A stretch of DNA of 64,000 nucleotides, taken from Mytilus trossulus. Lineage: Eukaryota. Location: NCBI RefSeq assembly GCF_036588685.1, contig NC_086374.1:100502001-100566000 (forward strand). Reading direction: 5' to 3'. A program made the translations under genes and the position numbers. Under the pieces are notes generated by a model. That model was not told where the DNA came from, did not search any database, and saw nothing but the letters and a program-made list of their open reading frames with translations. This document shows positions 8,503 to 43,186 of the stretch, piece by piece (positions within the stretch are counted from its first letter, which is position 1; each line of letters begins with the position of its first letter).

Positions 8503-8580
8503 CTGCAACAGACACCAAGGGACGATGCTCTAGGATTGTGATCTTAAAAGCTCTAACAATCCTCCTCGTATCTGATGCAG
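8503..8580 (-). ncRNA. Structured RNA motif in LINE 3'UTR, copy A
   Basis: Minus strand: CUGC-AU-CAGAUAC-GAGG-AGGAUUGU-loop-ACAAUCCU-AGAGCAUCGUC-CCUUG-GUGUCUG-UU-GCAG. Confidence 0.6.
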
Positions 8581-8674
8581 AAAAACAAACACAAATGAAA
8601 AAAGTTTATGTATATTCACAGCAAATAACATATACTGCAGTAAACAGGTATTGAGAATAGTGTAGGTTTCCCTA

Positions 8675-8746
8675 CTGCAACAGACACCAAGGGGCGGTAC
8701 TCAAGGAGCTGTGGTATTTACACAGTCCTCCTCGTGTCTGAAGCAG
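8675..8746 (-). ncRNA. Structured RNA motif in LINE 3'UTR, copy B
   Basis: Minus strand: CUGC-UU-CAGACAC-GAGG-AGGACUGUG-loop-CACAGCUCCU-UGAGUACCGCC-CCUUG-GUGUCUG-UU-GCAG. Confidence 0.6.
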
Positions 8747-8763
8747 ACAAGAAGGCCACATAA

Positions 8764-9423
8764 TTAACAATTTTTCGAAATAAATTTACATGCAGCAGTG
8801 AGAATAGACTTATCTTCTGTGTTCATAAGCCATATCAGTTTATCTCTTGCGTTAAGAGTTAAAAAGTTGGGGCAACTTTTAGTTATCTCTTGAAATAGAT
8901 GATTGCGGTCATCATTAAATTTAACACATTGGAATAAAAAATGATATTCATCCTCCACATCTCCGGAGTTACAACGAGTACAAGTTCTGTCATTTAGGAG
9001 AGTACCCTGATACCTTCCAGACTCAATTCTTAAGTGGTGTGATGAAATTCTGAGCTTTGTTAAGCTTCGTCTCTGTTCAAAATTCCCAATAATGGAAAGA
9101 TATTTTTCTCTTCCAAAAACTGATTTAAATGTAACATAAGTTCTAAGTTTACCATCTGAATGCTTTACCAATTCAGTGTTCCACAAGTCTATAAAATATG
9201 ATTTTAATATTTTTTTCATATTAACTTTGAAGCTATTAATTTTTGGTAATGGTGAAGATAGATGATTGATGTCTGGGATCATTTCAAGAATTGACTTCAT
9301 AGAGCCATACCAAGATGTTTTTTTTGAGTGAGAAAGATTCTGTGATGTTACATAAGCATCTTTAAGAAGAGAAAATTGGGAATCAAGATTTTCCAAGCGA
9401 TACCAGTAATTTAACATGGATTT
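8764..9423 (-). pseudogene. LINE ORF2 C-terminal fragment (post-RT region with CCHC zinc knuckle)
   Basis: KLRTY..FK..FGREKYL...LRISSHHLRIESGRY...CTRC....EDEYHFLFQC. No stops in about 220 codons, but 5'-truncated. The 9441 start in the ORF track lies in the flanking minisatellite. Confidence 0.85.
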
Positions 9424-12400
9424 GTTAGATCTGAATGTCAACCGTTGTATGTTTACTTTTTCGGGATTTCGTTAGATCTGAATGTCAACCGTTGTATGTT
9501 TACTTTTTCGGGATTTCGTTAGATCTGAATGTCATCCGTTATATGTAGGCCACCAGCCAAGATGCTACTCTGCTGGTAAAACTGTAAATCAGATCCAATA
9601 TCCATAATTGCGTATTTTTTGACGTTGTAAAGCAAGAAAAGCCTTCGGCGACAACAAGGAACTTTACTCCTGTACACAATTTTTGCCCATAAATCTGCGA
9701 GATCAAAACTAATGCCCGCATGACAAGTCTTTTCCAATATATTTCTTCGGAATTGACACAAACGCAAGATGAATACAACGGAAAATCATAAAGATTTCGT
9801 AATATTTTTGATTTACTAGGCTAGAATGTATATTGATTGTACAAGAAATGAGAAAAGGAGAAACATATCCAACTATAGCAGTCATCACGTGACTTTTGTG
9901 ACGTCACACATCACCCGTATCAAGCCCAAGTAAATTGTATAGAAATGCATAGGGGCTTTCTGGAATCGATGAAATACATTACTTTAAATTCATGATACTA
10001 AAAGTGTGGGTCTTTGTAGTAATTCCTCATATATTTAGAAATAACAATATTCCTTTTGGAATAGTTTAAATTTTGATCTTCTCCCTTCCAAATGCTTTTG
10101 AAAATTTGTCTTGTTGTCTCGATAGTTCACACTGTTAAATCATACAACTACGATAACTATTGGATTTTCTGTCGTCTTTAGCCTTAAATTGCGATTTAAA
10201 CAAAACAGATGGAATAATTGTGGGTCTTTGTGCTTATTATTATATTCATAAATATTTGAAATATCGTATAAAGAATAGTTTAATTTTCTAGTATGTCCCT
10301 TCCAAATTGATTTGAAAATAAGCTATTTTCAGAAAATCTGCTATTATTTTTCAAGATGGCGACCAGATTGACAGCGTGGGGCGACATGGTAAAAATATAA
10401 TTTGTACGATTTTTACAATGAAAATTAAATAACTGTTGGATGCTCGCGTTTTCAGTCACTGTCTTACCTTAAAGCAGCATGTAATCGAACATTGGTTCCT
10501 TTTTATCAAGCTTAAACATGCTGTTGTTATTTTTATAAAACTTTGAAAAAATGGCGAACAAATAATTTTCAAACGTAGAGGATGTTCGACACTTATTTTG
10601 TTAATGCACATAATTCAATTTATTTTCACTGTTTATATTGCAATTAAATATGACACGTTATTGTAACTATAGGAATAGCCTTAGATATAGCTAGATTAAG
10701 GAGATATTAATTAAGTCATAACATCAACGTGATCAAAGAAAACAAACATGGCACCTAATCACGATGTAAGTTTTGACAATACCCATGTAGATGCATGCTT
10801 TGACAATACCTATGCCGGTTAGTGATGTCCGATTATCAATGAAATTCTTTGCAATATTATTTTATATTCATAAAAGAAGACATCGAATGGATATAAACCG
10901 AGGTGAACTAAATATATTTTTCAATTTTCTTTAAATAATTCATCAGGTAACCAGTAAAAAAATCCTAAATGAACCAGTCACATGCAGAGTTATCGAACGT
11001 AATTATGACTGTAATAGTTGCATATGGCTAGAAAATTGACCACAACATAATATTTATTGACAAATGACTATAAATCATGTACATATGGCGAGGAATGAAT
11101 ATTTAACTGATTGCTGCAACGACGGACAGAATATTGACAATTCAAATTTGTTTTCAATGGCTAGCTTCCCACGTTTTGAAGATCGTTTTGCAGATTTGTT
11201 TGTCTAATTTTAATGAAGTATCCAAACTTATTTATTTTTTAATTGTTGTTCCTGAAAGTTTTACAACCCAAAACAATTTACTTCAAAGTTGCAACAATTA
11301 GTAAGAGTCATATTCATGTTGAAGATTTCGTAGTTTCTTTTCTGTTAAATGTGTAAATATGTTTCTGCAAGTTTAAATTGCCCCAGGTTATGTATTTTTG
11401 AAACATTAGTTTTAAGTTTAATCTTAGAATAAGTCCAAACTTGACTTTTGAGCAATATAGTTTCAACTAATGGATGCCATAATTTTCTAAACTGGAAAAC
11501 GAAGTCGGGATTCAACCGATTTTACGAGCCTGATGAGATCATTGTTATATCTAACTAAGAACTTCAAACAATTTTACTGCGGACAGGTGTGAACAAACAG
11601 GTGTGCTCTAATAGCAGTTTTATGCCTAAGTTTACGAGTAGCTTATTTCGTCAAGTATAATTTTATGTCCCATTCTCGCATATTTCTCACTAGTAACTGT
11701 AATGACCGCCATAATAATTACAATCACTTATGCATTCTTAAGATTAGAAATATGCAAGAATTGGACAACCATTATCTCTAAAATGAATATGTTTTTCGTT
11801 ATTCCTATTATCATCGGAAAAGTACATCAAACTTTATTGCTCGAGTGACCATAAAAAGGACATAAAGGGACTTAATCCGGTCACAATTCCGGTATTTGTA
11901 ATCCAAAAGTAAACAAGTTTGTCATTCCTCGATTTCCATACGTCATGCTTGTGTAATGTTTTGGCATAATTCGACCATTTGTCACCGTCAAAAGTCCGAG
12001 TAACCCACACGTGCAGGTGTGAAAAAGGTCGTTTCTTTCAATAAGGTCAAATAGATAATCTTGAGGAACAAATCTTAAAAATACATTAAAAGAACGGAAG
12101 GTGAAATTTTTAAACTTTCAATCAGGACATTTATAAAACCGTTACTAGTGACTAACCTCGTAGTCTCGTGATATTTTTAATGAAAATGTTAAGATTTTCT
12201 GTGTGTGGGGGAGGTAAAAGAGACAGAAAACATTTATCTTTACACTTCGAGTGACAATTCTTTTTATTTGTGTGTTACAGGCATATTTCATCTACAAATA
12301 TATTGCTTTAGGCATGTAGAATAAAACCAGAACATCCTGAGATACCATTATTTCGAGATGGCCAATGGCCACAAACTTTAGTCTGTCCATTTTCTCAAAT

Positions 12401-15400
12401 CCCAATCGTTATAATAACACTTTTTCTTTTCCAAAGAAAATGACAATTTGACATGTAGAACATAGACAGACAAAACCTTGTATAAACGATGTGAGGTGAA
12501 CAAAAATGAGACAGCAACCCAACGACAAAAAAAACTCCAAAGAAACCAGTGCTACATGATACTAGCAATAACAATAACAAATATTTTCGACATAAGGACA
12601 GGGTAAGAAAGAGATAACAAGTTCCCTATACTTAGGAAACGGTTAAAACCAGTAACAGTTACAGAGTTACATGACATTAAAGAACACAAATCCATATTCA
12701 GTCATCTTTACTTAAGGAAGTTAAAATAGCTATTGAGATATAATTTGAATTTCATATACATTTTGACTTAATTTTTCTATAGTATTGAAATACTCGTGAA
12801 TTTAGCACAAATGAATTTAGTATCTTATTAAAATAGATCTTTTTGTAGAATATTTACAAGTCGGTACTATAAACTCTTTGTGGTACCGACTTGTATGTAA
12901 GCAGGCATAGAACAAAACGTTTTGCAACATTAATTTCTAAAACTAAATGAATTAAGTCCAGCGAAAGATATATCATGCATATTTAGAACGATGCTTTAAT
13001 ATGTACCTTAGTAAATATTTAGTGTTTATCTTTCAGGAAACGTTTCGATGACGACAAACAATTTTTGTTCTGAAATTTTGGAATGAGAATTTAGATCAGA
13101 AATGTTAACAAAAAATTGTATTGGACATACGAAATATTACCATCTGACTGTCTAAAAAATACAACCAATGGGAGGGCAATTAAGCTTTCCGTGACCTGAA
13201 TCTCCAAGAACATTTATGCCATTCAGGGGGCAACCGATATTATTCGATGAAAAAGAAGAAATCAAAACATCAAAAAAGCGCGTAAAACGTAAAAGTCGGT
13301 CACTTAGAATTCTAACGAGTTTGAAGAAAGTAGAGTACAAATAAGTAGGAGTTTATTGGTATGTGAAATCCCAAAATAGAAGTCTGGTTTATATTAACAG
13401 TTCGTGATTTTATGGCTCGTAACAATAAGGGCCTTTTCCGAAGTTTTTCTATTCATTGATCAACGGTTAAACATCTAAATGCATGGCCCTTGAAACCTTC
13501 TTTGATTCTCAAGATTTATATTTATGACCAACTAAAATTAGGATATTCAATTTCCCAATAATACCAAAGTACAAGTATCAACGAAGAAGATGCTAATTAT
13601 TAATTTCAGTTTAACTTTTTCTTGACGATTATTCAAAACTTAAATAATATAATAATTTTCTCTAGGGATTTTTTTTAGGAAGTTGTAGATCTAAAATTAA
13701 TTTCCGATGTTAATGATGGCACATTATATTGTGAAAATTGCAGAATAGATGTATTCATGTGCATAAAAGCATAAAACAATGCACTCCAATAACTACTTTG
13801 ATATTTTCTACCATCACACAACGTTTAATCATCTGTAAGATCTTCGATGTCACAATATTGTTCAAGAAAGTAATACCGGAACATCACTCTTCAGGTGCAA
13901 GATACAAAAAGCCTTGTAATAAATATACCGGAACAGTACTCTTCAGGGGAAAGATACGAAAAGCCTACAAAGAAGAAAAATAGTTCTCGTGCAAATTTTT
14001 TTAATCATGATTTAAAAAGATAGAAAATCGTGTTCATCAAAAGTCAAAAGTTAACTTCATAAATGAATATGTGACTTAAGGTATTCAAACAAATTTGAAA
14101 TACCTTGTGGTAAAATTTAAGAGAAAATAGTTCATATTTATCATATATAGGCCCTAAATTTTAATGTGATATCTTTAAAATCTGATGACGGGTGTTAACA
14201 GTTTTAACATTGAAAGTTAGAGAAACCTTGAACTCCAAACACGCCTGACTTTGTTTAAATAATACAGAAAATAATTGTATATTGTAGATAGTTTTTGTCT
14301 TACACCTTATTTGAACCAATTGACCGTGTAGGCACATAATTAAAGACCTTAGTCATTTTATTTTTTATTCATATTGTCCCTCGTTTTATATTTAATGTTC
14401 AAATAGAAGAAATAACCAGATATTGGGAAATCCTGCATTAAGATATATTTGAAATCATAGGACATCTAAACCGAGGTCTAGGTCTTAAACGCTATTTTCA
14501 TTGTCTTCACTAAAGAAGGTACAAATTCGTACCACGAAACAAGCTGACCTCGCAGGGTGTAGTAGATCTTTTACATTGATACACTATTAAAAGGCTTTTT
14601 GGTTGCTTTGTAGTATCATTACTTATTCTTCTGCATATTTTTGGTCATGCGGATATTACATTCTTTTTGCATTACTGCATTTCAGCAAATCAAGAAATTT
14701 ATTTAAGTTTGTATGCCTTTGTCTAATGTGGACTTATTATTTCGTAGTTTTGGGTGTCTAGTGGCTTTTGTTGATGAATATTGAAATCTCTCGGAGCTTT
14801 TTACTACTCGAGCGTGTTATAGAACAGTTCACTGTCACCAAATCGTTGAAAACCATAGTGTGATATTCTATGGATGATATTTATAATTTTTCTCGATGTT
14901 TTATTGAGATCTAATTCACGTAACTGGTCTTCACAGATTCTATCATGCTGCTTTATTCATTCACAATGATGACAAATGATATATATTCCAATTGTAAACA
15001 AATTATGAACATTATTTTGGCATACATATACACAGAGAATAGTTAAATATTCATTTCATTTTCTATCGAACATTCAACTAAACATACTCCCTCACATTAA
15101 CATACATAAATATTATTGGCAAGACATACATTTCCCAAACCTTTTACTACAAGGTTAATTTTAATATGTCATTTATACATGCATAGTCATGCCATACATT
15201 TGTTTTTAACCACATATATGGTAAAATGTGATTCAACTATAAATATTACTTTTGTTATAAAACATTTCTACAGCAAATACCACAAATGTCAAACATATTT
15301 TTCTATCCAAGAGATTTGACCTGATCTGAAACAGGATTATCTACATTTTCGTGGCAACTTGTGAGGACTAGTGCTGAATTAAATTTAAAAAATGTAAATA

Positions 15401-17775
15401 AGGAACACACGGTGCGACTTCACTGAAATGTAGGTCATAGCAATGACAGTAAAAAATTGAGACAACTTTAACAGAAAGAGGTTAAACACCGGTTTAACGA
15501 TATACACATGAAGTGTTCTTGGCCTATTCATGACGAAACAAAACACAATACACAAAACATCGATATGTTTATTTTCTTCCGTTTAGCAAATCTACGGTTC
15601 CAATCAAATATTTAGAGGCGAGCCCAAAGTCAAAATTTTGTTTACTGGTTGTTGCTTTCAGTTTTTACCACTTAGGAATTGTCAATTCATTTACAATGTT
15701 GACCCTTAAATTAACTTTATGTTTTCTTTTACCTACTCCTGATTTTTACCAAGCCACGCATCCAAATGGCAGATTTTCGTTCGTTTCTGTTTCATTCTTT
15801 TACAACTTGTGTAGTTCGTTGTTGTCTTTCATTTTGGTGTTTTGTGTTTTGTCTTGTCATAAACAGGCCATTGTTTTCCAGGCTCATTTGGACTATTATA
15901 ATTTTTACAGTCTTTTATATCTTTCTATACTGAATGGGTTTTACTTATCTGAGAAAACCATATACTTTACAGCTTCTTAAATCCTTGTCTTTTTCGTCTC
16001 TATGGCTTTTATACTTGTCTAATTGACAATCATAAATGTGTAACACAGTAAGCTTGATGATTCGTGTATTTATGATATGTGTGATTAAAATTAACACAAT
16101 CGGTACACGAAATATGAACCCATTTTAAAAAGTAGGTGTATCTTCATCGAGATTATACTACATTTAAAATTTTAATTTTCGACTTACGCAAATATATAAT
16201 GTTCATTTACCAAGAACACGAACACAGTATTTAATGGATTAAGAAAACGTTTGAAAAATTCTCATACGAACTAATTTTTTTTCTTCAAAATGTAGGTCTG
16301 TGTTTGATATTTAAAGCTTAAAAGAGTCACTATATCACTTCCAAATGATATGCAAATATATGTCTAAGACAAGGCTATAAATTTCTTTGAATAAGTAAAA
16401 TTAGGTAACATCAAAGTGTACAGGTAAATTAATCAGTCTATAAAACACAGGTGTTTAGCAGCTTGATGTAGGTTCACAAATGACACAAGCGTTGAGAATT
16501 TTGGGAGGTCAAAGTTTGCGGTACAGCACATGCAGTAATTTATGTCGTCGTTTAAATTTTCGATACTCTTCTAGCCGCTACCATGGTTGAAGACTGCATA
16601 TTTAACGGTTTTCCATTTATTTATTTACTGTTTCTAGCCATAAATAAGGATACTATCAATCCATATAATCGCATTTGGCCTACATTATGTTTAACGTTAT
16701 TTGATAAATAATGACTAAATATATAAGTTTATATGTTTATCAAAGGAAATCGAGTCCAAAGTGAATTTGCGAGAATACGACATCCATCATATACCAATAT
16801 ACAGCTATCTGTTTGCGACGATATTAAAATATTGAAAAATCAAAACAAAATAATACGTATAACCTTATTTGTTTCATAGATAAACCGACATACATAGAAA
16901 CCACGAATTACCAAGGTTATTTCAGGACAATATATATTGTTATCAATACATCTTCATCAGATAACATAACTAGACCTTTTGATGTGTATTAAATTATGAC
17001 AAATTGACCCATTATCAAACAAAAGGCGGTGAACACCTGAAGTGGCCTTCAGACAAAACATAAATAGAGTTGGTCATTGAGTACATGTCCAGTGGCACAT
17101 GGCTTGTTCCGGTCTTCTGCTTATTTGGGACGTTTTTCCAAGTATAAAATTCCTTTTGATATCTACAACTTCAACTCAATTCTGCATTTTAAAGTTACAT
17201 TCAAAATATACAGTTTTAGACCTGTTTCACGGTACTAGTATAAATATTAATCTGGTCGTTGACCTTCCCATTAGAATGTGCCAATCCGTTTACTGGACAT
17301 AAGAAAAAGACGCATAAATTCTTCACACATATATGAGCGTAAAATGGTATTTTAGACCGTTATACGTAACTCTTCTACACTTATTTTTATTAGGTCTTCC
17401 ATAAGACGACATGTGGGATCAATGAAGTAAATACTTAACGGAAATAATAATTTTGATTGAAATGATTGATTTATCATTGATATATCGATTAATAACCACT
17501 TTTTTAAACACCAAGAATATTGTATTCATGTTCAGGACGAAAGCTTTGATATAAAATTAGAAAAAAAAGTTTCATATTGCATACAAATACATAAGCTTGC
17601 CATTCATTCCCAGGCTGTCATTTTTTATCACACTATTGCCTAACTTGTATTCTCCGCCTTAATATGGCTTATATAGTATTGTTCATAATTTTGCAGTCTC
17701 GTTTTTGTCGTCTTGACCAAAGTTGCATGAACTATTTTCCACTGGACTTTTTGCAAATTCTTAATCTATTATTCT

Positions 17776-17901
17776 CAGTGGCGGATCCAGAAATTGAAGG
17801 GAGACACTGTCTGCCTAAGAGGGGGCCTAATCTAGTTATGCTTCATTGATTCCCTATATATTCAACCAAAAAAGTGGGGACAGGTCCTTAAACCACCTCT
17901 G
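17776..17901. mobile_element. Short MITE remnant (cagtggcggatccag...ccacctctg)
   Basis: Degenerate short TIRs. A related end, caggggcggatccag, lies at 57050. Confidence 0.45.
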
Positions 17902-19074
17902 ATTCTTAATTAGTAATGTCTCGTCTTAAAGCAGCCTATAATACTTGTCACTGGTGATAGAAAAACCAAATCTAATTAACCTAATTATTTCCCAAAAAGG
18001 TAAAGACAACTGCATGAAAGCAAAACAAACCGCGGCATCGTGCCATGATGATTTATATGACTTTTATAGTAGTTATGTGTATATATATTTTGTGTAATGA
18101 ACACATTATTTTACATAAGACGAAGACAACTGATTGACAATTTAACTAATTTCATTAAATAAAAGTATGTTAGTTGAAAGGCTCCCATCAGCCAATCTAA
18201 TTTTAAACTTAATAAAAAAAAAACACAACACTTAGCAGAAAAGGGAAAGGTACCAACGCGACAATTAAAAAAGCACTATCCGCAGAATAAACATAAAACG
18301 CGACTACCTCCATATAAAGATGAACCTGAGACAAAAACTGTCCACCTGGAAAACGAAATAAACCATCATATAACGTATATGACAGCTAAAAAATAGATAT
18401 ATATAGGATAGGAAAAGATGTATAGGATAGGAAAAGATATCCATATAGCAGTTGAAAATATACATAATAAATATCTTTGTTGGGTTCGAGTTGTTCAATT
18501 TAAAAAAAAAGAGGTTTTATGTATAGTGTTGTTTGGACTGCTGCTTGTCTTTTTAATTGTGTTTTTCCTCTTTGATCATTTGCCACTTTGGTACTTTTCA
18601 TTTTAGTAATTGATTAATTTTACAACAATCAAATTACGGAATACGCACCGAATATTACAGACACAAAATTTTATTACGAGTTTCAAAAGTTTTGATTCAT
18701 TATATTTTTGAAACTACTTGATGTCATTCAAAATAAATGCAACAACTATTGGCAAAAATGCATATACATACAACTCGCTTATTTTAAATTTTATAATTCC
18801 GCATCACGCAAAAAAGTCTTAAAAAATTGATGCGTCTCGACGTATTTCAAAAGCAACTATATGTCTACCTAAAAAACAAATAAAACTTATTCAATATCAG
18901 TTTCATCCACTATATCACAATATTAATGGAAATATAGGTTTTTGCATTTCATTGATATGCATGCATCTTTTATCTAAATTGATGCGATTTTTCTCTCAGA
19001 AAACTAGAGGCCCAAGACTGGATCGCTTACAGAACAATTTTACAATATTTTGATGTTCTGACTAGCATTACTGT

Positions 19075-19348
19075 TTACAGCCGATTGCATTGAGTGTAAG
19101 GTCAAAGGTAAATTCTTTGGTTAGCTTACTTGCTAACTTTACCTTGAAGTCATTGTTAGGTTAGGTAAACTACCCTTCTTTACGAGTAGACTAGTCCGTC
19201 AGATAACCAATCTATTTGTCTGTAGGACTAGACCACTTCGTTCGAAAGGAGGTAGTATACCTTACATTATCATGGCTACACAGTTCAGCTAGCAAGAAAG
19301 CTAATCAAAATTAACGTTTGCCTACACATTCAATGAAATCGGCTGTAA
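19075..19348. repeat. 274-bp imperfect palindrome (decayed foldback MITE) in the Lox2 intron
   Basis: Nested symmetric pairs: ttacagccgattgcattgagtgt/acattcaatgaaatcggctgtaa, ttagcttacttgcta/tagcaagaaagctaa, ctacc/ggtag, ctagtcc/ggactag. Confidence 0.8.
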
Positions 19349-19949
19349 TATATAATTTTTGGAAGAACGTAGCTTCTGAAAGAAATATTGTTCAAACAAG
19401 ACGTTCCAGTGGAGTTTTTTTAAAGATATTTTGAAATGTTTACGACCCACGATGAACACTAAGATACGAGAACAGTTCTCGTTATACCTTTTGGTCAGGT
19501 GAGCTTAAATGATGTTCATTTAGCCATGTTAAAATGCCTGCCAAGTTTCCAAAGTATCATTCACAAATATTGTTTGAGACACTGCCAGAAGAAAATAAAT
19601 GAACGAGTATATGTAAAGCTCAGACACAAAATACTAATTATAATATCAATGTCTGTGCTTGATTGTAAATCGTCTGAATATGTTGATTGAAATACCTGGC
19701 TGTTATATTTCTCAACGAAAAATACCACGATAATCGCAAGTTTTTTGGCGTCAGTCGCCCGTCGTAAGAGACAGTGCATACCCATTGAGGGGAACCAAAC
19801 GCATGTAATAGAGGGATGACATGGGGTAAACATTCCCCAAGTCATGCTTTATTTGTATCCCCCCTTGTTTTCCTTCTTTTTCTCGTATCCTCTTTTCCCC
19901 ACATCCTCTCTTTTTCTATCCTCATATCCCACGTTCCCACATGTTCTAA

Positions 19950-20258
19950 TCACCCAAATCCCACCAAGCGTGTCACTCCCTCTCAATAAATTTGTGTAAC
20001 AACTACGAAAGATGAGAAATTAAAGAAATAAAAATAAGGAACTTGGGAGCAGATTAGAAATATGTAATAGTACACTATCAGTCTATATTTTGCAGAAATT
20101 TATCGCCCATGTCCCAAATCTCCTCAAGCGTGTCACTCCCTCTTAATCACTTTTTGTAACGACTACGAAAGATGAGAAATTTAAGAAGAAAAAATATGGA
20201 ACTTGGGAGCAGATTAGAAGTATGTAACAGTACACTATCAGTCTTTATTTTGCAGATA
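19950..20258. repeat. Two tandem copies of a ~160-bp unit
   Basis: caagcgtgtcactccctct...actacgaaagatgagaaat...ggaacttgggagcagattagaa...tacactatcagtct at 19965 and 20125. Confidence 0.9.
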
Positions 20259-21581
20259 TTGATTTATTGTTTTGATATATTTAAAAGTTTTAGCAACACT
20301 AATTAAATCTCAATTTTTAAATTTCTGCTGATGACGTAAAACAACGTGTGTTCGATTCCAACCAGTAAACCAAGCTAACGCCTGTGATACTAATTGAGAA
20401 CTCATTCATCAACATAGCGACACTGTTTTACCAACAATGTGGTCAATATATTATTGCAGTAAAATATTTGTTTCTAAATAAAGCAAATTTCCTTAAAATC
20501 AATGAAACCAAGTGTCAAATAACCAAGTTATTAATCGAATATGGCTTTAATGTAATGAGAATGAACTCGTTATGTTAACAAAAACTTTTTCTCAATGTTG
20601 TTGCTTTCAGTGAAAACAAAAACTAATTTCAAAGGAAATCGATCTTTTAATGTGAAATCTCTGCAATTTTGTCTAATGTTCTAGTAGAGTCTAAGTCCTG
20701 AAAGTGACATGCAACTGAATACAATATTGGTAAAGATAACAATAGTTTCTTTTTTCACTTAACTAGTACAATGTCATGTTGTAGAGATCCAGTAGATATA
20801 GTCACGAGCAGAACGTGCCTGTAAAGAACGATCGTAAAGTTGTTGTTATTTTTTCAAATGAAAAAGATTCCCAAACGTACAGTATTCAAGAAGATTATAT
20901 CACATAGTATTTTTGCAATACTTTTTCATATTAGTGATGTGGATTGTCTGTTTTACAGCTCGAATGTAACGTATTCCTGCGGGCTATAAATAATCTGTTA
21001 GCAGGGCTATAAATAGTCAGTCAGCATCGTTACAATGACCAATGGCATAACAACTGATATACTATTCTATATGCTGAATATCTGTATGAGGGTGGGGGTA
21101 AACCCAGAATCTATAGCCTCCTTTTCATATAGCCCTATGCGTAATACAATGCACAAAGTATATACTCTGCATGAGTGTTCAATTGATTGTCTGTTTTAGA
21201 CAAAATTTTAAACTTCAAACTAAACGATGTCATTTGCTGTGTCCACCGAATTGAGATATGTTTCAATTGTTTTTTTCGTCATTTATATACCTTTATTACT
21301 AAACTCAGAATATAAATTAAACAACATACACGAATTGTTTTCATTTAGTGAAATTTGACGTGACTATAATACAAGTGAGAGGTTAGGCTAGCTATAAAAC
21401 CAGGTTTAATTCACCATTTGCAACATAGGTACCTAAAGGTACCATGACTTGCTAATTTGGATTTTCATTGTAGTTCCCTTTTTTTGTAAACTTTATTTAA
21501 AGATAATAAGTAGTTTTTCAAAACAAGATATCGACCTGAACATATGCAACAAATACCGAAGCTGCTTCTGAACATTTTGCA

Positions 21582-21583
<2 letters not shown>

Positions 21584-21627
<44 letters not shown>

Positions 21628-21633
21628 TAATCA
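21584..21633 (+). repeat. (CAAT)n microsatellite, probable SINE tail
   Basis: About 11-12 CAAT units. Similar short tails at ~6270 and ~2945 (inverse). Confidence 0.9.
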
Positions 21634-23009
21634 ACTAATACGCTATCCGAATCTCGAGATCCGAATGGAAACAAAATTGCAACACACAAGTGATACCAGT
21701 TAAATCCAAAGGCTCAAATATACAACAGACATTATTTTTAATTTATACACGAATAACATAAATTATACACAAAAACTACTAAAAAGACAGAGGAAATTTA
21801 TTTTGTGTCTTTCACATCTGTAGGCACGAGAAGAAACACGATATTGTTGTTGAGACCAAAATGTTGCAACATTTATCATAACAAATGCATGAACAAAAGC
21901 ATTTAAACACACCAAACAAATTTGTTAACGTTCACATTTCACACTTATAGTTTCAACACTTTGCACATTTACATGAGAAATTATCTTTGTCACGATAAAC
22001 ACTACACGCAACTGTTACATGTATTATGTAATAAGGTCGTAGACACTAATACATAGAACACCAAGAGCGAATTGTATAAAAATTGAGGAAATGAAATATA
22101 GCCATGATCGGTGAAATATTGATGTTAAAATTACGCTTTAAGCAAGATAGTTCATTAATAAAACATGTTCTTTTGTCATAAACTAGATGCAATTAACGAG
22201 TCATTAAAGCCAAACGATCCGTGTTGACAAACCATGTGAAATGTTTACATTTATTCAAGTTCTAGATATCACTGCGCTTCTGAATGTGTAAGTCGGTATT
22301 TCCGATTTTGATTGTTTAATCCACATCATTCCACTAGGACACACAATTATTTAATCAGAAACTAAATCACAAACTCTGTCGAAATAAAGTGCAAGTATTG
22401 AACATGCTTTCATTCATGCTATCAGTCTAGCCGTCTTATGAAATCACCGCTGACTTGCGAATTTTAGACGCCTCGGAACAGTTTTATATGTTTCCTTATT
22501 TAGATTGGCTGACACCACTTCCGGTTTATATACATTTCGACTAGTCATATAGTTAATTGTTGATACATGTATCTTTTGTTTTTCCACATTTTTGTTGTCA
22601 GTTGGTCTGATCTGAAAAAATAATCTGGTTTTATTTGCAATATGCATCACCAACAGTGTAGTGTAATCTTGTTAATTCTAATGTTCGTTTCTTATTTCGC
22701 TAGTAGCACAATTTTGAATTGAAAATGTCTCATGGCTATCTACCCAAGCGACATTAATAGATAATGCAAGCTAACTGAGAGTGCTTGAAAAGGCGTTTCA
22801 AGCATCCGATATTTTTCTTGTTTTTTTTGCTATTTTGTTATACGGCTACTACAATCGAGTGATGAGAATCAAGGATAATAAATCAAAATGGAAAAAGGAA
22901 ATGAGTTTGGCCGTTAGTTTTCTCGTTTGAATTGATTTTCATTTGAAATACATGGACCTTTTATCATTGACTATGCTAATGGGTTAATCCGCTTTGCTCA
23001 TTGTTGAAA

Positions 23010-23166
23010 TTTTGGCTCATTTTGGAATTTTGGGTCCTCAATGCTCTTCTACTTTGTATTTGTTTGGCTTTTTAACTATTTTGATCTGAGCGTCACTGAT
23101 GAGTCTTATGTAGACGAAACGCGCGTCTGGCGTATAAAATTATAATCCTGGTACTTTTGATAACTA
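23010..23166 (+). mobile_element. 157-bp hammerhead-bearing Penelope-derived insertion with 6-bp TSD, nested in another repeat
   Basis: TTGAAA is duplicated at 23004-23009 and 23167-23172. The host repeat (gctttgctcattgttgaa|gccgtacggtgacc) resumes after the insert. Confidence 0.8.
23090..23133 (+). ncRNA. Minimal type I hammerhead ribozyme (Penelope-like-element type), intact core
   Basis: GCGUCA-CUGAUGA-GUCU(uaugu)AGAC-GAAAC-GCGC-GUC^-UGGCGU. Stem I 6 bp, stem II 4 bp, palindromic ACGCGCGU stem/loop III. Predicted cleavage after 23127. Confidence 0.88.
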
Positions 23167-26100
23167 TTGAAAGCCGTACGGTGACCCATAGTTGTTAATT
23201 TCTTCACAACGCAGTCTCCTGTGAAGAGTAGTCTCATTGGTTATCACACCACATCTTATTAATTTTTAGTTAATAATAAACCCAGAAGTGCAAGAAACAT
23301 TAAAGCTCAAGATAAACGCTATAAGATGATAAACATTAATAAAAGCGCAGTTCAATTGCATTTTGTGTTATTTTGGTGCGCGTGTACTGATTTTGTTTCA
23401 TGGCCATTATATAGGTACTCCATATTTTTTCTTTTCTATTATGTTTTGCATCTAAAAGTTAAAACTTTAATTTAAAGAAATACGAATATTTGTTAACAGT
23501 TAAATAGGAATCCATCTTATTTTTCAAAATTCCGCTATTTTAAAATATAATACACATAGAGATACCGACATCATGATATGTTAGAAAATATCTTCACCTG
23601 ACAAGAGATAATATACAACACGTGTGAACAAATTTAGTGTTGGCAAATGTACCAATTTCACCTTAGATAATAATCCATCATAACATCTTTCACTCAACTA
23701 AATAAAACGATATCATAAGCATAAAAAAGCAGCAAGTCACTCATGTGAAAACATTATCATATTTTGTAACATAAAAATGTGAATAGCTGAGTACACCAAT
23801 CATTCAAATGGGCCATTAGTAGCTACGCCGTTGTAGGTTAATGTTTGCTACTTGCCTGTGGTATCAAACAACCAGATGCATCGAAGCTAAGGGCGGTCCG
23901 ACTGCTTAAGCTGTGTGGCTTCATCCCAAGAAGATTTTTCATATGTTATCTAAAGTGGGCTTTTGATGGAAGCAAAAATTAAACAAGATTCATAATGGAA
24001 ATATAATTTAGTCGAGTGGCTTTTCTTTAATTTGAAGGTTGTGAAAGATGTTTTCTTCACACACAAGAAATAGAAGGTTACCGTAGGTCATCGAGTGCTC
24101 CTATAAATTGTGTATTTAGGTCAAATTTGACTTTTAAGATGGAATATTTAATTAGCGTATGAATTAAACATGCATTTGTTTCCTGTCGAAATAATTATCT
24201 AAAATATGCATTCAATTTTGATTTATTCAACTGTCATTGAATGGTTATATAACTCTTATTTGTTAGATATGTTAGTAAACGGAGATAAAGGGCATACGTC
24301 AATACGACAGCAAACTAACAAAAAAAAAGTAAACATCAACATACGCTGGTCAATAATAGACTTTTAATATGGCTATATAGTATGTCAAGCTCTAAATCGT
24401 CATTTTTCTCAAACAGTTGGACATTTTAACAGTTATCAAATGTACCACCAACCCGAAATCTCCAAACATAATTATATATGCCCTTTATGGGTTCTTGATT
24501 AGATTAATACAATTCTTATCTTATCTTCTTATACGGTAACTCGACAGTAAAGCTTCTAACTTGTTTTGTGTTTAATTTGGATTTTTTTTGTGATCTCTAT
24601 CGCCCTAGTTTTTAATCTGGATTTGTCTATAAGACAATTAACGTTTTCAGCCAAATACGTAACATTTTCACATATCTCCCCGTTCTGGGTGGTGGTCTGT
24701 ACCAATGTTAAGTATGTGGGAGGTTTCAGACTTTCGCCCATGTTGTCTAAAAATTGTCATTGGGTTCTTTAGTCCATATTAATATTTAAAAAAAAACACG
24801 CTGTTTTTAAAAGACGTCATCACACTAGAGTCCCTTACACCTGTTAATGTTTTAAAAAAGAAATAATGTTTTCTTTCGTAATGTAATTTATAGAGTGAAT
24901 AAAAATGTAAAAATATCGCTTCAGCCATTATCTAAATAGTTCTAATGTTCATATACGTTATTTATGGCATCTAATGGACGTATACCTCACACATTTACAT
25001 GTCAAATTCTCCACCTTTTCAAATTTAGATTGGAGAAATGGAATATGATTTTTATAAACAATGTCGCGGGACAATACAAACAGTAGCGGCGGAGTGATTT
25101 ATGTATATGGGTAAAGTGTTCTCGTTTTTTCCTTAGTAAATAATTCATCAAGTATACCGATGAAGCATAAATTATATTTTTCATAATAATATGTGATATG
25201 ATTATTAATTTGACACCCAAGAAAAACGATGTGATTTCCTGCCATTCAAAGACCTCCCTGTTTAAAATTTCTCAGTAGATTGAACTATTTGAACCGTTGA
25301 AGAGAACATAAGCTTTTTTGCAATATTGTTTTCTTGTTCAAATCATATTCATCTTAGAAGTATAACTGTGTATTTCAACCTTCCAAGCCAATATTAACAT
25401 AAATAAGATAGAAAATATAATGCTGTTTTGGTTGTTGTCTGCCATATTTGTTTCTTGATTATTGTTTTGTCTTAAATCAAACCGTTGCATTTTCTTTTAA
25501 ATTTGTTTCACTTTTTTCGTGTTAAGGCCTTTTATAGCTGAATATACTAGTAGATGGTATTGTATTTGCTCATCGTTGAAGGTCGTACTGTAACCTATGG
25601 GTGCTTATATTCACGTAATATGGACTCTGGTGTATAGATGTCTAATTTACAATGATATCACATCTCCTAATTTTTTTAAATAAATATTTAATGTAATAGA
25701 TATCAGTATAACTATATGGTTATTTTAAAAGTCTGGTTCATTTTTCAGACTCGTCGTCTTTTAATTTAATGACCCAAACAAAAACAAAAAACATCCTTAT
25801 AACAGAACTTACAAATATTTTAACCATCTGACATCTCTTTCTTGTTTTTGTTTCGATTTTCGAAGTAAAAATAGGCTTCAGTTCATGTCAGTATATCCTA
25901 TACCTAAGATGAGGACACTAGCATGGTTTTCACATGTCTGCTCTTTCCCCGGCACAGCTTTCCCTCAGTTTTGAAATTTTATTCTGAGACTGTTGATTAA
26001 AAAAGACCCCGACTGTTTTAAAAAACAAAAAAATACAAAACATGCAATGACAAGAACTGATAGATATAAACATATTGAGTATCTTATTTTAAGGAATATG

Positions 26101-28112
26101 ACTAAAAGGAGGTATGAGGTACACTCCGGTATTCAACAAAAAGACAGACATCTGTATAAAAAGACAAGGCTCTATAGACACGGATACTTTAATAGTGGAA
26201 AGCTATATTAATAACATTCGTAATAAGTATTTTATTTGCATGCATGTGACATGCATTTGTAAGTACATGGTACTATTCAACAAATGTCAAGAAAACATCA
26301 AACAGTGTTATAATACATGTATAAGATTGCACAATGTAATTCTAGTCAAGAAAGACTAAATTACCAAATTTTAAAAATTGCATAGTTAAATCTATTGATA
26401 AAACTTCAAAGCTAAATGAGAAATTTGATAGGTGTCATTTTAGGTAAGTAAAGTGGGACCTTTTGGACCTTTGTTATATATAATTGACTCTTTGACTTAA
26501 TGCACAAATGTTGTTTTTATTGACCCGATTCTTTGCTTTTTAAGTTCGTTTTTAATTATTTGAGATTGGAGAAGATGGTACCAGTTAGATCCTTTGGAAT
26601 CATTTAAACTGCATGAGTGCAAATTACGTCTCTTTACTATTGCTAATAAAAGGTGCATGTTCTTCTTTGTATCATGAAAGGCAAGATTACATTTAGGACT
26701 TTATTAAAACAGGGTTATTGATTTATTAAATTATATAACTTAGGCCATACCATAACCAATGAAAAAATGTTGTTCTGTTCCTGCTTGCAAGTCGGCTTTT
26801 AATAAAATGTGCAGAAATAGAACTCATTCCCCCATAGATCGAATGTATATTAACATTCTAAAATGTGTCTTATTTTGCTCTAAAAAATAATTTAACAATG
26901 ATATATGTAAGAACACTACTCAAGAACACAATAAAAAAACTAGAAAATCTCCATTTATACCTTTTGAAATTCCATATATTAAATTTTGGACGAATCTTCG
27001 ATTTTATTTCAACGAAATCTGATTGATTGGTAACACGCAGTTTATTTTGAAAAACACAAAAAGTTAAAACTCACTTACACACAAAACAATGATAAAAACA
27101 TAAAGGGAAGAAAATATTTCATTTTTAAGTTTCTCTCCCCATTTGAATGACCATACATTCCATCAATGATTTAAATAAAGGTATAATTCAAGATAATTAT
27201 TTCTCGATCCTTTGATCTTTGATTTGTTGATAGTGAAAAAATTAAAAAGCATTTTCAGAACTTAAGTATTGAAAATTAGAGGCCATCAGAAAGAAAGATT
27301 AATAATATTTTTGTACCTTTCGACCTTTGGTAACCATTGTTGTATTTTTTTCGTTCTTTCTAACGCTGCTAGCTCCAGATGTGGAGTTTAGGGGACATTT
27401 ACACTAAAAATTACAGGATTAAAAATAAATAAAAATGAAAAATGACTGGAAATCTTGAACATTTCATTGCCAATTCCCAATTTACCTCTACCGAGACGTA
27501 AGTTATCTGCTTCTTTGTCAGAAAGTGAAAACAATAGTTTAAAATTTAAATTTTGCCATGGGTCGATTGTCTTTTTTTCTTGGTAAAACTATGCAAAACT
27601 ATAGTTGTTAATGTTTGTGTCATTTTGGTCTTTTGTGGATAGTTGTCTCATTGGCAATCATACCACATCTTCTTTTTTATACATATTTTTTTTGTCGAAC
27701 TTTTGAAATATGCTTTATATACGTTCTTCGTTCACTTACAATCAATAAAAGCATCACTTTGGAAATTCATTGCGTCTTTAATGGACAATCAAATACTGCT
27801 GTAAAATAATCGAATTTAGACGTTGATATCTCTTGATTTCTCTTGATTTCTTGAGGCGTATATATATTCTCAAATATCCTACGACTATTTCAAAATTTAA
27901 TTTTAAAACTTTATTTCAATCAAGAGTTTCCTCCCATTGAATGCTTTAAAGTTGAGATAATTTTAAGATATATTAAATTCGTTAAAAATTATCGTATTAA
28001 TTACGTAACACAATCGTTTAAGAGTGAGAAAAAACACCGCAGAAGTATAACTGATGTTTGAACTATCTAAATATATAAATTATTATAATAAATTTTATTT
28101 CTTTGATTTCAG

Positions 28113-28405
28113 GACCAAACTCAAACCAGAGAAGAAGAGGCAGACAAACATATACAAGGTTTCAAACATTAGAACTAGAAAAAGAATTCAAATTCAATAG
28201 ATACCTCACGAGACGGAGACGAATAGAACTTTCTCATATGTTGTGTTTGACTGAAAGACAAATTAAAATTTGGTTTCAAAATAGAAGAATGAAAGAAAAG
28301 AAAGAACTATTAGCAATAAAAGAAATAAATGAACAGAATAAATCTCCAGAAAAAACTGTTATTAAACCGGTATCACCTGTGTCTTCAGGCGATGCATCAA
28401 GCTGA
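28113..28405 (+). CDS. Lox2: Hox gene Lox2, coding exon 2 (homeodomain 28130-28309 plus Ubd-A parapeptide)
   Basis: Acceptor tttctttgatttcAG|GA at 28112/28113. The translation is [93 protein letters not shown] and MKEKKE are Lox2-type residues (Lox4 has EFQFNHY/RKRRIEIAH/MKLKKE). Stop TGA at 28403-28405. Confidence 0.95.
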
Positions 28406-32040: not shown

Positions 32041-32120
32041 ATATGTGTTTATTCATTTTTGTCAATTTAAAGAACGTGTTGGTCCAAGAAGCTATCAAAG
32101 GTACCAGGCTTTATTCTAAT

Positions 32121-32162
32121 ACACCAGACTCGTTTCGTCTTCACAAGACTCATTAGTGACGC
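32121..32162 (-). ncRNA. Hammerhead ribozyme copy, degenerate (CUAAUGA; loop III shortened)
   Basis: Minus strand: GCGUCA-CUAAUGA-GUCU(uguga)AGAC-GAAAC-GA-GUC-UGGUGU. Confidence 0.75.
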
Positions 32163-33949
32163 TCAGAGCAGTTAAAAAGCCAAAAACAAGTACAACGTTG
32201 TAGCGCTGTTTTTTTCATTGTGATTGAAATTCATATCCCATGTCCAAGCTTTGTTTAAAGAACTCTTAAATCGTATCTGTTTTAAGACATTTTTGGATCC
32301 TCTTTTTGTGTCTGATTAACACACACCGCCACAAATTTGAAAGCTCAAATGTCATTGGCTGATGCCGTAAATGACAAGAACATAAAGTAAAACGGAGCCT
32401 TGTTAGATCTCGAACACTGTATTTTAATCAGATTGACACAGCAGTCAAAACAATAAAAAAACAACATTTGAGACGACTAGTTTCCAACTAAAGTACAAGT
32501 TCAAGACCTCATCACACAAAAGTAATAAGAAAAACGGATTGAAACTCCGTTTTTAAACAAATTAGACATTATACATATAATTTTAAATATACTTGTTACT
32601 TAGAATATTAGGGCTAAAATACTATGATATAGAACGAAATGTTTGTATAAACATGCATAGACAACTTAGAGATAATGCAAACGAATATAATACTTGCTCT
32701 TGTTATCACGATTAGTGAATTTATAGAACAGAGAACGCGAGAGAAAAAAAAAGTAAGTCGTATTTTTAGACATATAAATAAAGGTAACAGTAGTATACCG
32801 ATGTTCAAAACTCATAAATCAAAAGAAATAAAAACAAATCTGGGTCACAAACCAAAACCGAGTAAAACACATTAAACATAAGAGGAGAATGACGACACAA
32901 CATCAAAATGTATCACACACAAAAAACAGACTAAGCATTAGACAAAATCCGATGAGAATAACAACTATAACATCAAAACAAAATACATGAATTTGTGAGA
33001 AAGTGTTGGGTACTGTACACGAGACACAACGTACATTCTATTATAGGGCCTCATGGCATTTTATTTACTGGGTTTTCTACAAAGCTTTAATATTATTTTA
33101 ACTACAAAGCAAACATGCTCAAGATGCAGTCAAGTCAGATACAAAATAGAGTATTAATCCAATTAATCCCACAATCTTGAAAAGTGAAAAAATAAATAAA
33201 AACATATGAACAACGAAAATGATAAAATAGGTATTACTTAACTCATCATAGATACCTAGGTTGACAAATTTTGTATGGATATCAGTTAGGTACACGTTTA
33301 TAACTCCCTGAGGCAAAATTGGCTTTAGAGGGTCTTAACAGTATTTATTAACACTTTTTGATTTGATTCTCGAGTCTTACTGTGAATTTTGTTTCCATAG
33401 TTTTTGGTCTGGAGTGTATGCAATTGAAAGTCTTTTAACAGCACGTGTCGAACATACTGGAATGATATCATATATGCCATAAATCAGATGACCAACAACG
33501 ATTATTTAATTAGAGGTAACAGTAGTCGTCCACCTACATTCATCATAAAGAAGATACAAATCACGGTAAAATCCGAGGGAATCGCATCAAATATAACAGG
33601 AATAACATCTATAGGGAAAGCCTTTTTTTCTGTTATGCATAATACTCTTTTTTTTATTATCAAGTAAAAGGATATATATGGTAACTAATAACAAATTAAA
33701 AGGATAATAACAGTTGCAAAAAATACGAGACGACAAAGCAATTAATACATACCAATAAGTATTGGACCTACAAAGAAACAAACAAATCAAGAACGGAATC
33801 CATATGATAAGAATAACCTCTTTCAGATAAAAATATATAGTTCGATAACTTACGAATCTCGTACGAAGACGGTATAGATAATGATTTTTCATTCGTATTT
33901 TTTTGCAGTCTCTCCACCATCATACCCATGAACTTTACAAAATATAGAA

Positions 33950-35130: not shown

Positions 35131-36105
35131 GATATTACATTTAAACACAATGCATATTGCAATACGTATTAATAACAAAGAAACAACAGAAATACTAAAG
35201 TGCAACAAACACAAAAAACAATGCAACATTCTTAAACACGGACTATTCGATAACAACTACCATATTCTTGACTTGGTATGAACAAACGATTACTTTTTAT
35301 TGCATTCACTGCACAAAGTAAATCACAAAAAATACCGAACTCATCAAACAAATGGAAAATAACTGTCATATACCTGACTTAGTACATGCATTTTCTAATG
35401 TAGAAACAATGGAATAAACTTTGTTTTAAAGATAGCTAAACATCTTACTTGCAAGATAATTTTAAGTAACAGTTGTTCTTAAATATTGTAGGATTGGTGC
35501 TCGGTCAGAACAGGTTCATTTACAACATAACTTACTTATCTCGTCAAAAGTCCATAATTGATAAATATATGAAGGGTTTTATTTATTATTTATAACACTG
35601 TGTCAACAGCACTGCTAGTGGAGTATCTTAACACGCGGGTATCATCAGTCAGTTCCTACGTATTGCAATTATTTATTTTTTAAGTTGCATAGATCTGTTT
35701 CGGTACGCATACATTATTTTTTTCATACATTGAATGGCATTGACTTTTCTGACGATGTAAATTCCACATTTGGACTTACGTATTAAAATTTATTTCTTTT
35801 TTGTCAGAAGGCTTGCACTTGATTTTGATTTTAATAAAACTGCCAGGTTAAATCTATACTAGTACATTGGTCATCTTGATTGAGTGTCTTCGAATTTTAC
35901 AGATATTTACAATCGTTTGATGGTAGGTATTCATTTGAATGGGGAGAAACTGCACACTTTTTAATACTCAGAAAGAAAACCTTTTATGTACTTTGAAATA
36001 ATATTTCGGTATAACCTATATACAACATTTATTCCAAAACAAATAATTACAAAGTTGTTTTATAGCAAGAATATGACTATCAAATTAACAGGCTTATAAT
36101 ATCAT

Positions 36106-36149
36106 ACACACAACGCGCGTTTCGTCTACATACGACTCATCAGTGACGC
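36106..36149 (-). ncRNA. Hammerhead ribozyme copy, core intact but stem I 3' strand damaged
   Basis: Minus strand: GCGUCA-CUGAUGA-GUC(guaugua)GAC-GAAAC-GCGC-GUU-GUGUGU. Confidence 0.72.
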
Positions 36150-38042
36150 TAATATCAAATTAGTTAAGAAAGCCAAACAAGTATGATGTTAAACAGCATC
36201 ATATACCCAATATTTAAAAAAGTGTGTTATTGACACGTTTAATGGTATCGACTGTTTGGTATTTGTTAACAAAAAAACGACATCAATATTGAAGAAACAT
36301 CTACAGTAAGGATAAAGTAAAAACACAAAAAAACTGAACTCCGAGGAAAAGTACGAATGGATAACAACTGTCATATTCTTGACTTGGTACAGGCATTTTC
36401 TAATGTAGAAAATGGTGGATTGAACCTGGTTTCGATATTACCTAAAAACAAATGATTTATAAATTAATAATAAAAGAACATAAATATATGAACGTTCACA
36501 AAAAGTTACTAACTACAGCAAAACGAAATCTTGAACATATAGATATAAATTTCTATTTTAAAAAAAATCGTTTTTTCTCTTGCCTGTCTGATTCAATGCT
36601 CTTCAACGTCATAATTTATTTAGCCTTGATTTTTTTTTCGAGCTTCACGGATGAGTCTTTTGTAGACAAAACACGCGTTAGACATTCGAAATTTTAAGTC
36701 GTGTATCTTTGATAGGTGAACTCACCGATACAGTATGTTACATTCAGCAAGGAAGGCACACAATTGCCCTTACCTATATAAACATTATTTAAACGTATCA
36801 TCATGTAGCATTGCCAGTTGTTTGAAATTGATGACATTTTGTATCTGGCGAACAGCGATAATATGTAAAGGCTATGTTATTTCGAACTTACACCGCATCC
36901 TCCCATAGACTAACTAAGTTTTTAATCCTGCTCTCAGATTTTCTACCCCCATGCATAGATGGACGTAGCAAAAGTAAAATAACAAAATAACAAACACCAA
37001 GAAAATTCAAATATGAAAGCCACTTATTAAATGTCAAAATATAGAGCTCAATCACATCAACCGAATGGAAAATATCTGTCATATTTCTGTCTTGGAACAT
37101 ATATTTTCTTATGATGAAAACAGTTGATTAGACCTGTATTTATAGCTAGCTTAACGTCTCACTTGTATTGGTGTCGCATTGAATTCCTTTATACTGTCAA
37201 GAATGTGTGAGCAAAATAATCCAGACAGAATAGTTAAAAATGTTAAATATAGGGCAATATTGTGTTATAATTTTAAACACCGTAAAACAACCCTATGTCA
37301 GAAAAGAAAAAAAACAAAAGTTCAAATAGATAAAACATATGAGCAAAAATGAATCAGAAGAAAACAAAAAACTACCACAACGCAACTTATTGGTGGAATG
37401 AATAAGTACCGATCATCGCCTAAATGATGTTACCAAAAATGGACAAACAATAAGCAAGACAGACACTTTTTTATACACTTACTTTGCAGTGTTACTCATC
37501 TACTGATTTAAACATTTCTAAGAAGTATTACGTAGATGGAACGAACCTTTTTACGTGCTAAATAATACGACTGGTGTTTGGACGATTTTTGGTACGGAGG
37601 ACGTTAAAACGTCAAACATATATTGGAAATATCTAGTGGCAATTAGATGAGTCTTGGCTTTTATAATGATAAATGGGAGTACATATATAACTTTATCATT
37701 TGAATCAGGAATTTACTCTTATAACTGGAACTCTTTGAGAGGACATTTCAATGTCACTTGGTCAAAGCATCATCGATGAATTCAATTTAAATATGGTTTT
37801 TGGAGAAGATATCTTAAACCATTAACCTTACTTTTGATGGAAGAGACAATCAGTATTGACATAATCTACGGAAATTTAGGATATTAAAAAACTTTTCCGG
37901 GTTTGTTTTCACTCATATCTTATAATATGGTTAGTTTTCTCGTTTTCTTGTTTGAATATTTTTACATTGTCATATCGGTGTCTTTTATAGCAAACTCTGC
38001 GGTATGGGCTTTTCTCATTGTTGAAGGCCATACGGCGACCTA

Positions 38043-42329: not shown

Positions 42330-43142
42330 ATTTTTGTTAACGAAATAATCTTATATTCTAATATGATGATAAATTTATGGACAAAACTTATAGGTTGAAC
42401 AACTATACAATCATATGTATATGATTTTTAAATATCTTGTCGTTAAATGTAAGCATTATTTCAAAAGTTCAGAGAAATAATTGCTAATTAATATTCACAA
42501 AGATTGTCGTTTTTAAAGCATTTGAGAGCAGTTCGGATGTTGTGTGTAACAACAGGAATGCATTTGTTTTACGTTGGTTGTAAATCAATGGTCTTTCCTT
42601 GAAATGGAAAGGAGTATTCTTATTATGCATGCCTTGCTTTCTTTCTGATTCAAAGGTTTACGGACAGCTAATTTGCCAAAACACACACAGTGTGTATTAT
42701 ACATAATCACAAAAAGGAGTCGATGTATATTGGTCTATAGATACTCTCGCGGTTAAAATATACGCCAGCAGAGGCAAATAATTTGTTTTTTTTAAGTTAC
42801 ACAATATATACAATAACCATGGAAGTTTTCGGGTTGAAATGTTTTTCAACTAAGGTTTTGATTGGCCCTCGAACTGTTTTGATTTGAGTATCACCGATAT
42901 TTTGTATGTATAGTCGAGGCGCGCGTCTGTCGTAACTAATGATATAAGCCTCGATTTTTACACCAGTTTATAGGAATAAGGTTATTGAATAATGCACAGT
43001 TATACCCCAATAGGGTAGAAGGCATACATTAATCATCAAAATAAGTTTACAATACATCATAAAAGAACAGAACAATATGCAGATGCAGTTGTTGAGTCAA
43101 TCCTCCTCGGTGACCATGACTTTTGTGGATATTTTGATTTGA

Positions 43143-43186
43143 GCGTCAATGATGAGTCTTATGTAGACGAAACGCGCGTCTGGCGT
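43143..43186 (+). ncRNA. Hammerhead ribozyme copy with C3A core mutation (AUGAUGA)
   Basis: Otherwise identical to 23090-23133. Confidence 0.8.

Follow-up and report, generated by a model that had tools for sequence, protein, structure and literature searches.

The window, a stretch of 64,000 nucleotides of Mytilus trossulus DNA, contains a two-exon Lox2 gene whose long intron carries a hammerhead ribozyme (Table 1). Exon 1 matches a 259-aa Mytilus protein at 99%, and the cluster of that protein includes 'Lox2 [Mytilus coruscus]'. Exon 2 is 94% identical to chiton Lox2 across 79 residues. The two exons correspond exactly to the start and the end of a 261-aa M. trossulus protein, which is not independent and may itself have been modelled from similar DNA. 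The corresponding proteins of three other species have 259-260 aa, and the lengths of 259-261 aa thus fit a single GT..AG intron between the exons. The hammerhead lies on the same strand as the exons, with its cut site 22,025 nt past the donor and 4,985 nt ahead of the acceptor. An earlier note on this DNA had described an intact sense-strand hammerhead about 5 kb before the acceptor of a 27-kb Lox2 intron, on a young 157-bp insert flanked by a perfect 6-bp target-site duplication; our measurements bear it out on gene, distance, structure, duplication and age. Repeat cover along the intron is 0-4% in the first 18 kb and about 12% thereafter, and the insert sits in this repeat-tolerant 3' third, within a pre-existing repeat. 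There is no second intact sense hammerhead copy within the intron. For the ribozyme to be present in every Lox2 pre-mRNA, both alleles need to carry the insertion.

Table 1. Positions of the gene, the insert, the ribozyme and related copies (window positions, except for the sister family).
Feature	Position	Strand	Remarks
Lox2 coding exon 1	610..1102	+	ORF; hexapeptide YPWM close to its end
Lox2 intron	1103..28112	+	27,010 bp, GT..AG
Older interspersed repeat, split by the insert	22909..23267		ends approximate
Left target-site duplication, TTGAAA	23004..23009	+	
Insert, 157 bp	23010..23166	+	5'-truncated; corresponds to the 3' part of a tandem retrozyme unit of 355 bp
Private 5' junction	23010..23019	+	similar to the element and also to the flank immediately upstream
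Type I hammerhead ribozyme	23090..23133	+	canonical metazoan geometry (helices of 6/4/2 bp); loop III palindromic
Right target-site duplication, TTGAAA	23167..23172	+	first two letters also match the element's continuation
Lox2 coding exon 2	28113..28405	+	homeodomain and Lox2-type tail
Damaged copy of the element	32090..32206	-	downstream of the Lox2 stop
Damaged copy of the element	36078..36223	-	downstream of the Lox2 stop
Damaged copy of the element	36593..36714	+	downstream of the Lox2 stop
Damaged copy of the element	42838..42951	+	downstream of the Lox2 stop
Damaged copy of the element	43130..43223	+	downstream of the Lox2 stop
Sister-family hammerhead	L048:5834-5877	+	
Sister-family hammerhead	L047:3599-3642	-	

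The motif is a type I hammerhead: it has the core CUGANGA / GAAA / UH and three helices, with helix I open. CUGAUGA occupies 23096-102 and GAAA 23116-19, and GUC ends at the cleavage-site C23127, with the predicted cut between C23127 and U23128. Helix I pairs 23090-95 with 23128-33 (6 bp, including two G-U pairs), helix II pairs 23103-06 with 23112-15 (4 bp, loop of 5 nt), and helix III consists of 2 bp closing a GCGC loop, ACGCGCGU being a palindrome. The Rfam model RF00163 matched end to end (model positions 1-45 of 45) at exactly the boundaries of the motif, with 33.0 bits and an E value of 1.5e-6. The gathering score of this model is 34, and a scan of the whole window at gathering level returned 0 hammerheads because the motif falls one bit under the cut-off. 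It matches the model in every core letter and differs from it in a shorter loop II and in the two G-U pairs of helix I. A structural descriptor found one match in the real window versus none in 150 order-2 Markov windows of equal size; the motif is not a chance occurrence.

The insert splits an older repeat whose best other copies are 80-84% alike over its right part. In 26 of 29 other copies of this host repeat, the left 13-mer, the six letters and the right flank are contiguous, as in an empty site; the other three, which failed the 2-mismatch rule, look contiguous too. The host repeat carries one TTGAAA (or TTGAAG) elsewhere and two at the Lox2 locus. Because the flanks are joined through a single six-letter word in the relatives, the TTGAAA duplication was made by the insertion. 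The sole match of the 5' junction across the genome was itself. The body of the insert (23020-23166, 147 bp) was found at 406 other genomic places within one mismatch, with no second exact copy among the best 100 of the 407 matches. Standing one substitution away from 406 other copies, the Lox2 insertion is young.

The insert ends 39 nt past the cut site, the usual 3' end of the family. Eight other young loci that we inspected share this 3' end, while 5' ends vary in the family. Clean duplications of six or more letters were present at 2 of the 15 loci examined, the Lox2 copy included, so target-site duplications are optional in this retrozyme family. Neither AATAAA nor ATTAAA occurs in the 157 bp. 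The Lox2 copy has one hammerhead, and a tandem pair is needed to release a unit. Another young copy (98.7%), at L052:5020-5178 (+), is truncated within two letters of the point at which the Lox2 copy is truncated. It lies between two genes that we take, from their motifs, to be Antp-like and Lox5-like. Six alignments in the Hox cluster begin near that point, a possible pause site of reverse transcription.

We looked for the insertion site in contigs over 22400-23900 from four of 24 runs (X1, X2, X3 and X10). Their unique flanks stop at ~22935 and resume at ~23175; no contig of these runs spans the insertion site, and the joints seen are short-sided and fit other repeat copies. Run X1 held 0.78 of the sampled words despite nearly identical flanks, which an empty site and dropped records explain equally well. 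A flank motif specific to this locus has a single occurrence in the genome and no match in metagenome contigs.

The 44-mer of the hammerhead has 9,492 exact copies in the genome (4,804 + 4,688; 7.3 per Mb), and its backwards control has 0. Many copies sit in head-to-tail arrays of 354-355 bp on several contigs; one array has 23 listed units of 354-355 bp, and another is longer. Long arrays of near-identical 355-bp units occupy G000:C1:269289-296241 (about 27 kb) and C1:23689252-23697221 (at least 8 kb). The near-identity of array units may reflect either rolling-circle copying or unequal crossing-over. A sister hammerhead family, which we first met in the Hox cluster, numbers 3,122 exact copies, arranged in arrays of about 350 bp. 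Between the two families, 4 of 12 pairs change on both sides, spanning all three helices, and the palindrome of loop III is retained through compensatory change. These double changes all come from one sister-family split and count as few events; 10 of the 12 other rows were picked by the structure descriptor, which makes the paired percentage circular.

The element has the features of a non-LTR retrozyme, namely tandem units of 150-450 bp with one type I hammerhead each, low GC and neither an LTR nor a coding frame, and two related ribozyme families are present in Mytilus. It is likely the published Mytilus non-LTR retrozyme, judged by genus, unit size, tandem arrays and the presence of two families. 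The 355-nt unit (L026) also contains an 11-nt segment, 72-82 nt past the cut, that is complementary to helix II and GAAA (duplex -13.2 kcal/mol). This segment might block the ribozyme in the circle; in the predicted circle it pairs locally instead. It is missing from the truncated Lox2 copy. An apparent second hammerhead on the opposite strand of the unit has no valid core or cut site and is better read as the core-complementary segment. At L002:1270-1660 lies a copy of one unit with a terminal repeat of 36 bp; its start is four letters past the cut site. This is the footprint expected of a ribozyme-cut RNA copied from an internal 3' start.

We wondered how unusual the position in Lox2 is. Nine Hox-like homeoboxes, Lox2 among them, lie on one strand within 1 Mb (G000:C2:100.53-101.53 Mb), and two further related homeoboxes lie 2.2-2.5 Mb away from this cluster; the Hox gene names other than Lox2 are our tentative assignments from motifs. 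Long frames at L059:9784 to L060:5357 (+), L109:8371 onward (-) and L099:2190-3905 (-) in the cluster presumably encode LINE-type retrotransposon proteins. The survey covered 864 kb (the 64-kb window plus 800 kb downstream) and found 57 copies that span the hammerhead core. Of these, 23 are on the plus strand and 34 on the minus strand (P 0.18), so that no strand bias was found at this low power. Fourteen family copies in the 864 kb are structurally intact (6 plus, 8 minus), and one more descriptor match is unrelated to the family. From the cluster densities, a 27-kb intron would contain a sense copy with a probability of 6% (exact copies) to 18% (intact copies). Only past the Lox2 stop codon, at 36.6 kb and 43.1 kb, come the nearest further sense copies, both of them damaged; the one at 43.1 kb is 94% alike, with C3 changed. 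Given 9,492 exact copies in the genome, the place of the hammerhead in Lox2 needs no special explanation.

Six Hox introns contain 1 of 65 family loci, the Lox2 copy, versus 6.5 expected by length (P 0.009); the Hox3 intron, its donor not placed, was left out of this count. Taken by itself, this deficit speaks against a passenger, in that Hox introns do keep such inserts out. Repeat cover is 6.8% in the six introns versus 23.8% outside, and scaling by general repeat cover lowers the expectation to 2.0 family loci (P 0.40). Four ribozyme-free control repeats placed 7/94, 1/84, 0/40 and 0/76 of their loci in Hox introns. Two of them overlap, and with one dropped the pooled controls give 8/218, from which the retrozyme is no different (Fisher P 0.69). 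Ribozyme-specific purging from Hox introns was thus not found, at low power, ribozyme-free repeats being equally depleted.

We conclude that the Lox2 intron contains an intact type I hammerhead on a young truncated retrozyme copy and that this copy is probably a near-neutral passenger; it would cut no more than a minority of the nascent transcripts. Multimeric transcripts of the source arrays would be cut by the ribozyme into 355-nt units that go on to form circles; circularisation of units is reported for the sister species M. galloprovincialis (PMC7229834). Reverse transcription by a Penelope-like enzyme would be primed at a nick in an AT-rich target, would begin 39 nt downstream of the cut and would end after about 150 nt. 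Mobilisation by Penelope-like elements (PLEs) fits, indirectly, the 39-nt tail and the 5' truncation, which agrees with the Penelope-related origin suggested in the earlier note. The lone Lox2 copy has no partner in cis and no contacts between loops I and II, and no circle can arise from it. The youth of the copy and the maintenance of the structure in the source family account for its perfect motif, not a need of Lox2 for it. We see no sign of selection at this hammerhead, which adds one more copy of a familiar kind of element at an ordinary locus.

The lone ribozyme may nonetheless cut in cis and lower the spliced Lox2 mRNA of the carrying allele measurably, by 10% or more, the insertion then being a mildly harmful or dosage-modifying allele and not an adaptation. 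Its core and helices are perfect, and the truncated copy, lacking the 11-nt complementary segment, could fold more freely than a full unit. A cloned M. galloprovincialis repeat is reported to cleave at about 0.1/min during transcription (37 C, 6 mM Mg; PMC7229834), and the mammalian polymerase moves at 3.5-4.1 kb/min (PMC10919898). Computed from these published rates, about 12% of transcripts would be cut within the 1.3 min that precede synthesis of the acceptor, and 39% if 5 min are available; a rate of 0.01/min would give 1-5% over 1.3-5 min. These figures set a modest upper limit on any effect on splicing. This published rate is nonetheless too high to neglect, and invertebrate motifs are said to be capable of cleavage as monomers, so the earlier claim that this hammerhead cleaves poorly as a monomer is not established. 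The CPEB3 ribozyme, with a half-life of 2-3 min and a distance of 9.9 kb from its exon, provides a precedent with a measured effect (PMC10919898). In addition, retrozymes are under-represented in introns both of Xenopus, where 42-44% of copies are reported to overlap introns, below the length expectation (bioRxiv 10.64898/2026.07.22.740005), and of the mussel Hox genes surveyed. The Lox2 intron is the last coding intron. Splicing of such an intron may wait for 3' end definition.

Several results speak against a measurable effect in cis. The rate of 0.1/min applies to 37 C and 6 mM Mg and possibly to the other family, and the cut fraction in a cold cell with low free Mg is likely lower than 12-39%. 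At cellular Mg, hammerheads that lack tertiary contacts cleave much more slowly. In the single-strand model, the hammerhead is not the preferred fold (z 0.92; probability about 2e-4 for the bare motif, and 2e-4 or less overall). In context at 37 C, the active fold lies 6-15 kcal/mol uphill, varying with the stretch folded, versus 6-10 kcal/mol for array copies; because array copies score about as poorly, the energy model does not discriminate active copies. The cluster has no detectable strand bias, and the depletion in introns is not ribozyme-specific. We therefore regard measurable cutting in cis as unlikely; a small effect on Lox2 splicing is possible and a large one unlikely. Separately, we rejected as unsupported the idea that the junction silences the Lox2 copy: a helix between junction and core, predicted with 90 nt of upstream context, had a probability of 0.0 with 150 nt.

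A broader claim would be that thousands of intact sense intronic retrozyme hammerheads, the Lox2 copy included, cut pre-mRNA, alone or in trans, enough to change output. We think this decidedly improbable. If true, insertions segregating across the genome would act as a source of variation in expression, in this case of a Hox gene.

Cutting in trans would have array-derived retrozyme RNA pair through loop III and helix I, the resulting two-molecule hammerhead cutting Lox2 and many other pre-mRNAs. The earlier note had held that the palindromic loop III suits a dimer, and our modelling agrees: for two strands at 37 C, the predicted minimum-energy fold is the dimeric hammerhead (-31.5 versus 2 x -10.0 kcal/mol). 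The palindrome is also the feature kept through compensatory change in the sister family, and mussel gonad and mantle are reported to contain abundant retrozyme circles (PMC7229834). However, the fold predicted for two strands at 15 C is not the hammerhead dimer, and the circles are reported to be stable, so the ribozyme within them is thought to be blocked. The few minutes available would probably be short for a reaction between two molecules. Cutting in trans is thus very unlikely. A further reading is that the ribozyme was co-opted and now regulates Lox2 splicing as a conserved element, in the way of the CPEB3 or amniote intronic ribozymes. The sense orientation and the intact core would suit this, as would its being the sole family copy in six Hox introns that are poor in repeats. 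We consider it extremely improbable, since one substitution from 406 other copies leaves no time depth, the repeat around the insert is decayed and belongs to the repeat-tolerant 3' third of the intron, no tertiary contacts have been gained and the base rate is that given above.

With the near-neutral passenger as the preferred reading, the Lox2 locus itself is of little weight, being one more copy of a very abundant family. It is nevertheless a clean test case, with a young, single, sense copy, a known empty-site sequence, a measured distance to the acceptor and a two-exon gene. The question it serves is whether lone retrozyme hammerheads harm host splicing in vivo. We found no literature in which this splicing cost was measured in mussels; the cost is inferred from the depletion in frog introns. 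Should such an effect exist, a genome that has >12,000 exact motifs would bear a large load of hidden expression variants.

How does the Lox2 copy compare with known systems? In search listings of the openly licensed literature, neither this locus nor intronic retrozymes of mussels were the subject of a paper, and a text search for the hammerhead motif returned no mussel paper. The closest relative is the retrozyme of M. galloprovincialis, described as about 5,000 type I hammerheads of two similar families in 350-390 bp repeats, with the usual loop contacts absent (Cervera and de la Pena 2020, PMC7229834; GenBank MN642551-MN642576). According to that description, the two share the genus, the type I hammerhead, tandem units of ~350 bp, two families and thousands of copies, as well as the lack of a tertiary motif between loops I and II, low GC and a duplication of >4 bp. 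In contrast, the Lox2 copy is a lone truncated fragment of 157 bp with one ribozyme, from which no circle is possible, and the 9,492 + 3,122 exact copies counted here compare with about 5,000 in an older M. galloprovincialis assembly.

The earlier note had classed the motif as a minimal PLE hammerhead, and here its geometry decides otherwise. Canonical metazoan type I hammerheads are described with a helix I of 6 bp, a helix II of 4 bp, a helix III of 1-2 bp and a palindromic loop of 2-4 nt, whereas min-HHRs, which lie in the pseudo-LTRs of coding PLEs, have a helix I of 4-5 bp and do not require helix III (PMC4209133). With helices of 6/4/2 bp and no coding frame in the unit or its flanks, the mussel motif belongs to the canonical class. 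PLE tails are reported to be 30-40 bp long, with reverse transcription initiated internally at AT-rich targets (PMC8557442, PMC11167929). The mussel element thus resembles the PLE hammerheads in a palindromic loop III suited to dimers, a fixed 39-nt 3' tail, 5' truncation and an AT-rich target, and differs from them in its canonical geometry and in having no reverse-transcriptase frame attached. A preprint argues that retrozymes are non-autonomous Penelope derivatives and reports no cleavage for 8 of 9 frog dimers tested (bioRxiv 10.64898/2026.07.22.740005).

Intronic ribozymes offer the second comparison. Fong et al. 2009, as cited in PMC10919898, found that fast intronic ribozymes block splicing and that slow ones are without effect. 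The CPEB3 ribozyme (PMC10919898) and the amniote intronic hammerheads (PMC7761336) are, like the Lox2 hammerhead, self-cleaving motifs on the sense strand, kilobases before the next exon. They are described as single-copy and deeply conserved, whereas the Lox2 hammerhead is young, belongs to a massive repeat, gives no indication of being conserved locally and comes from a family with a slower reported rate.
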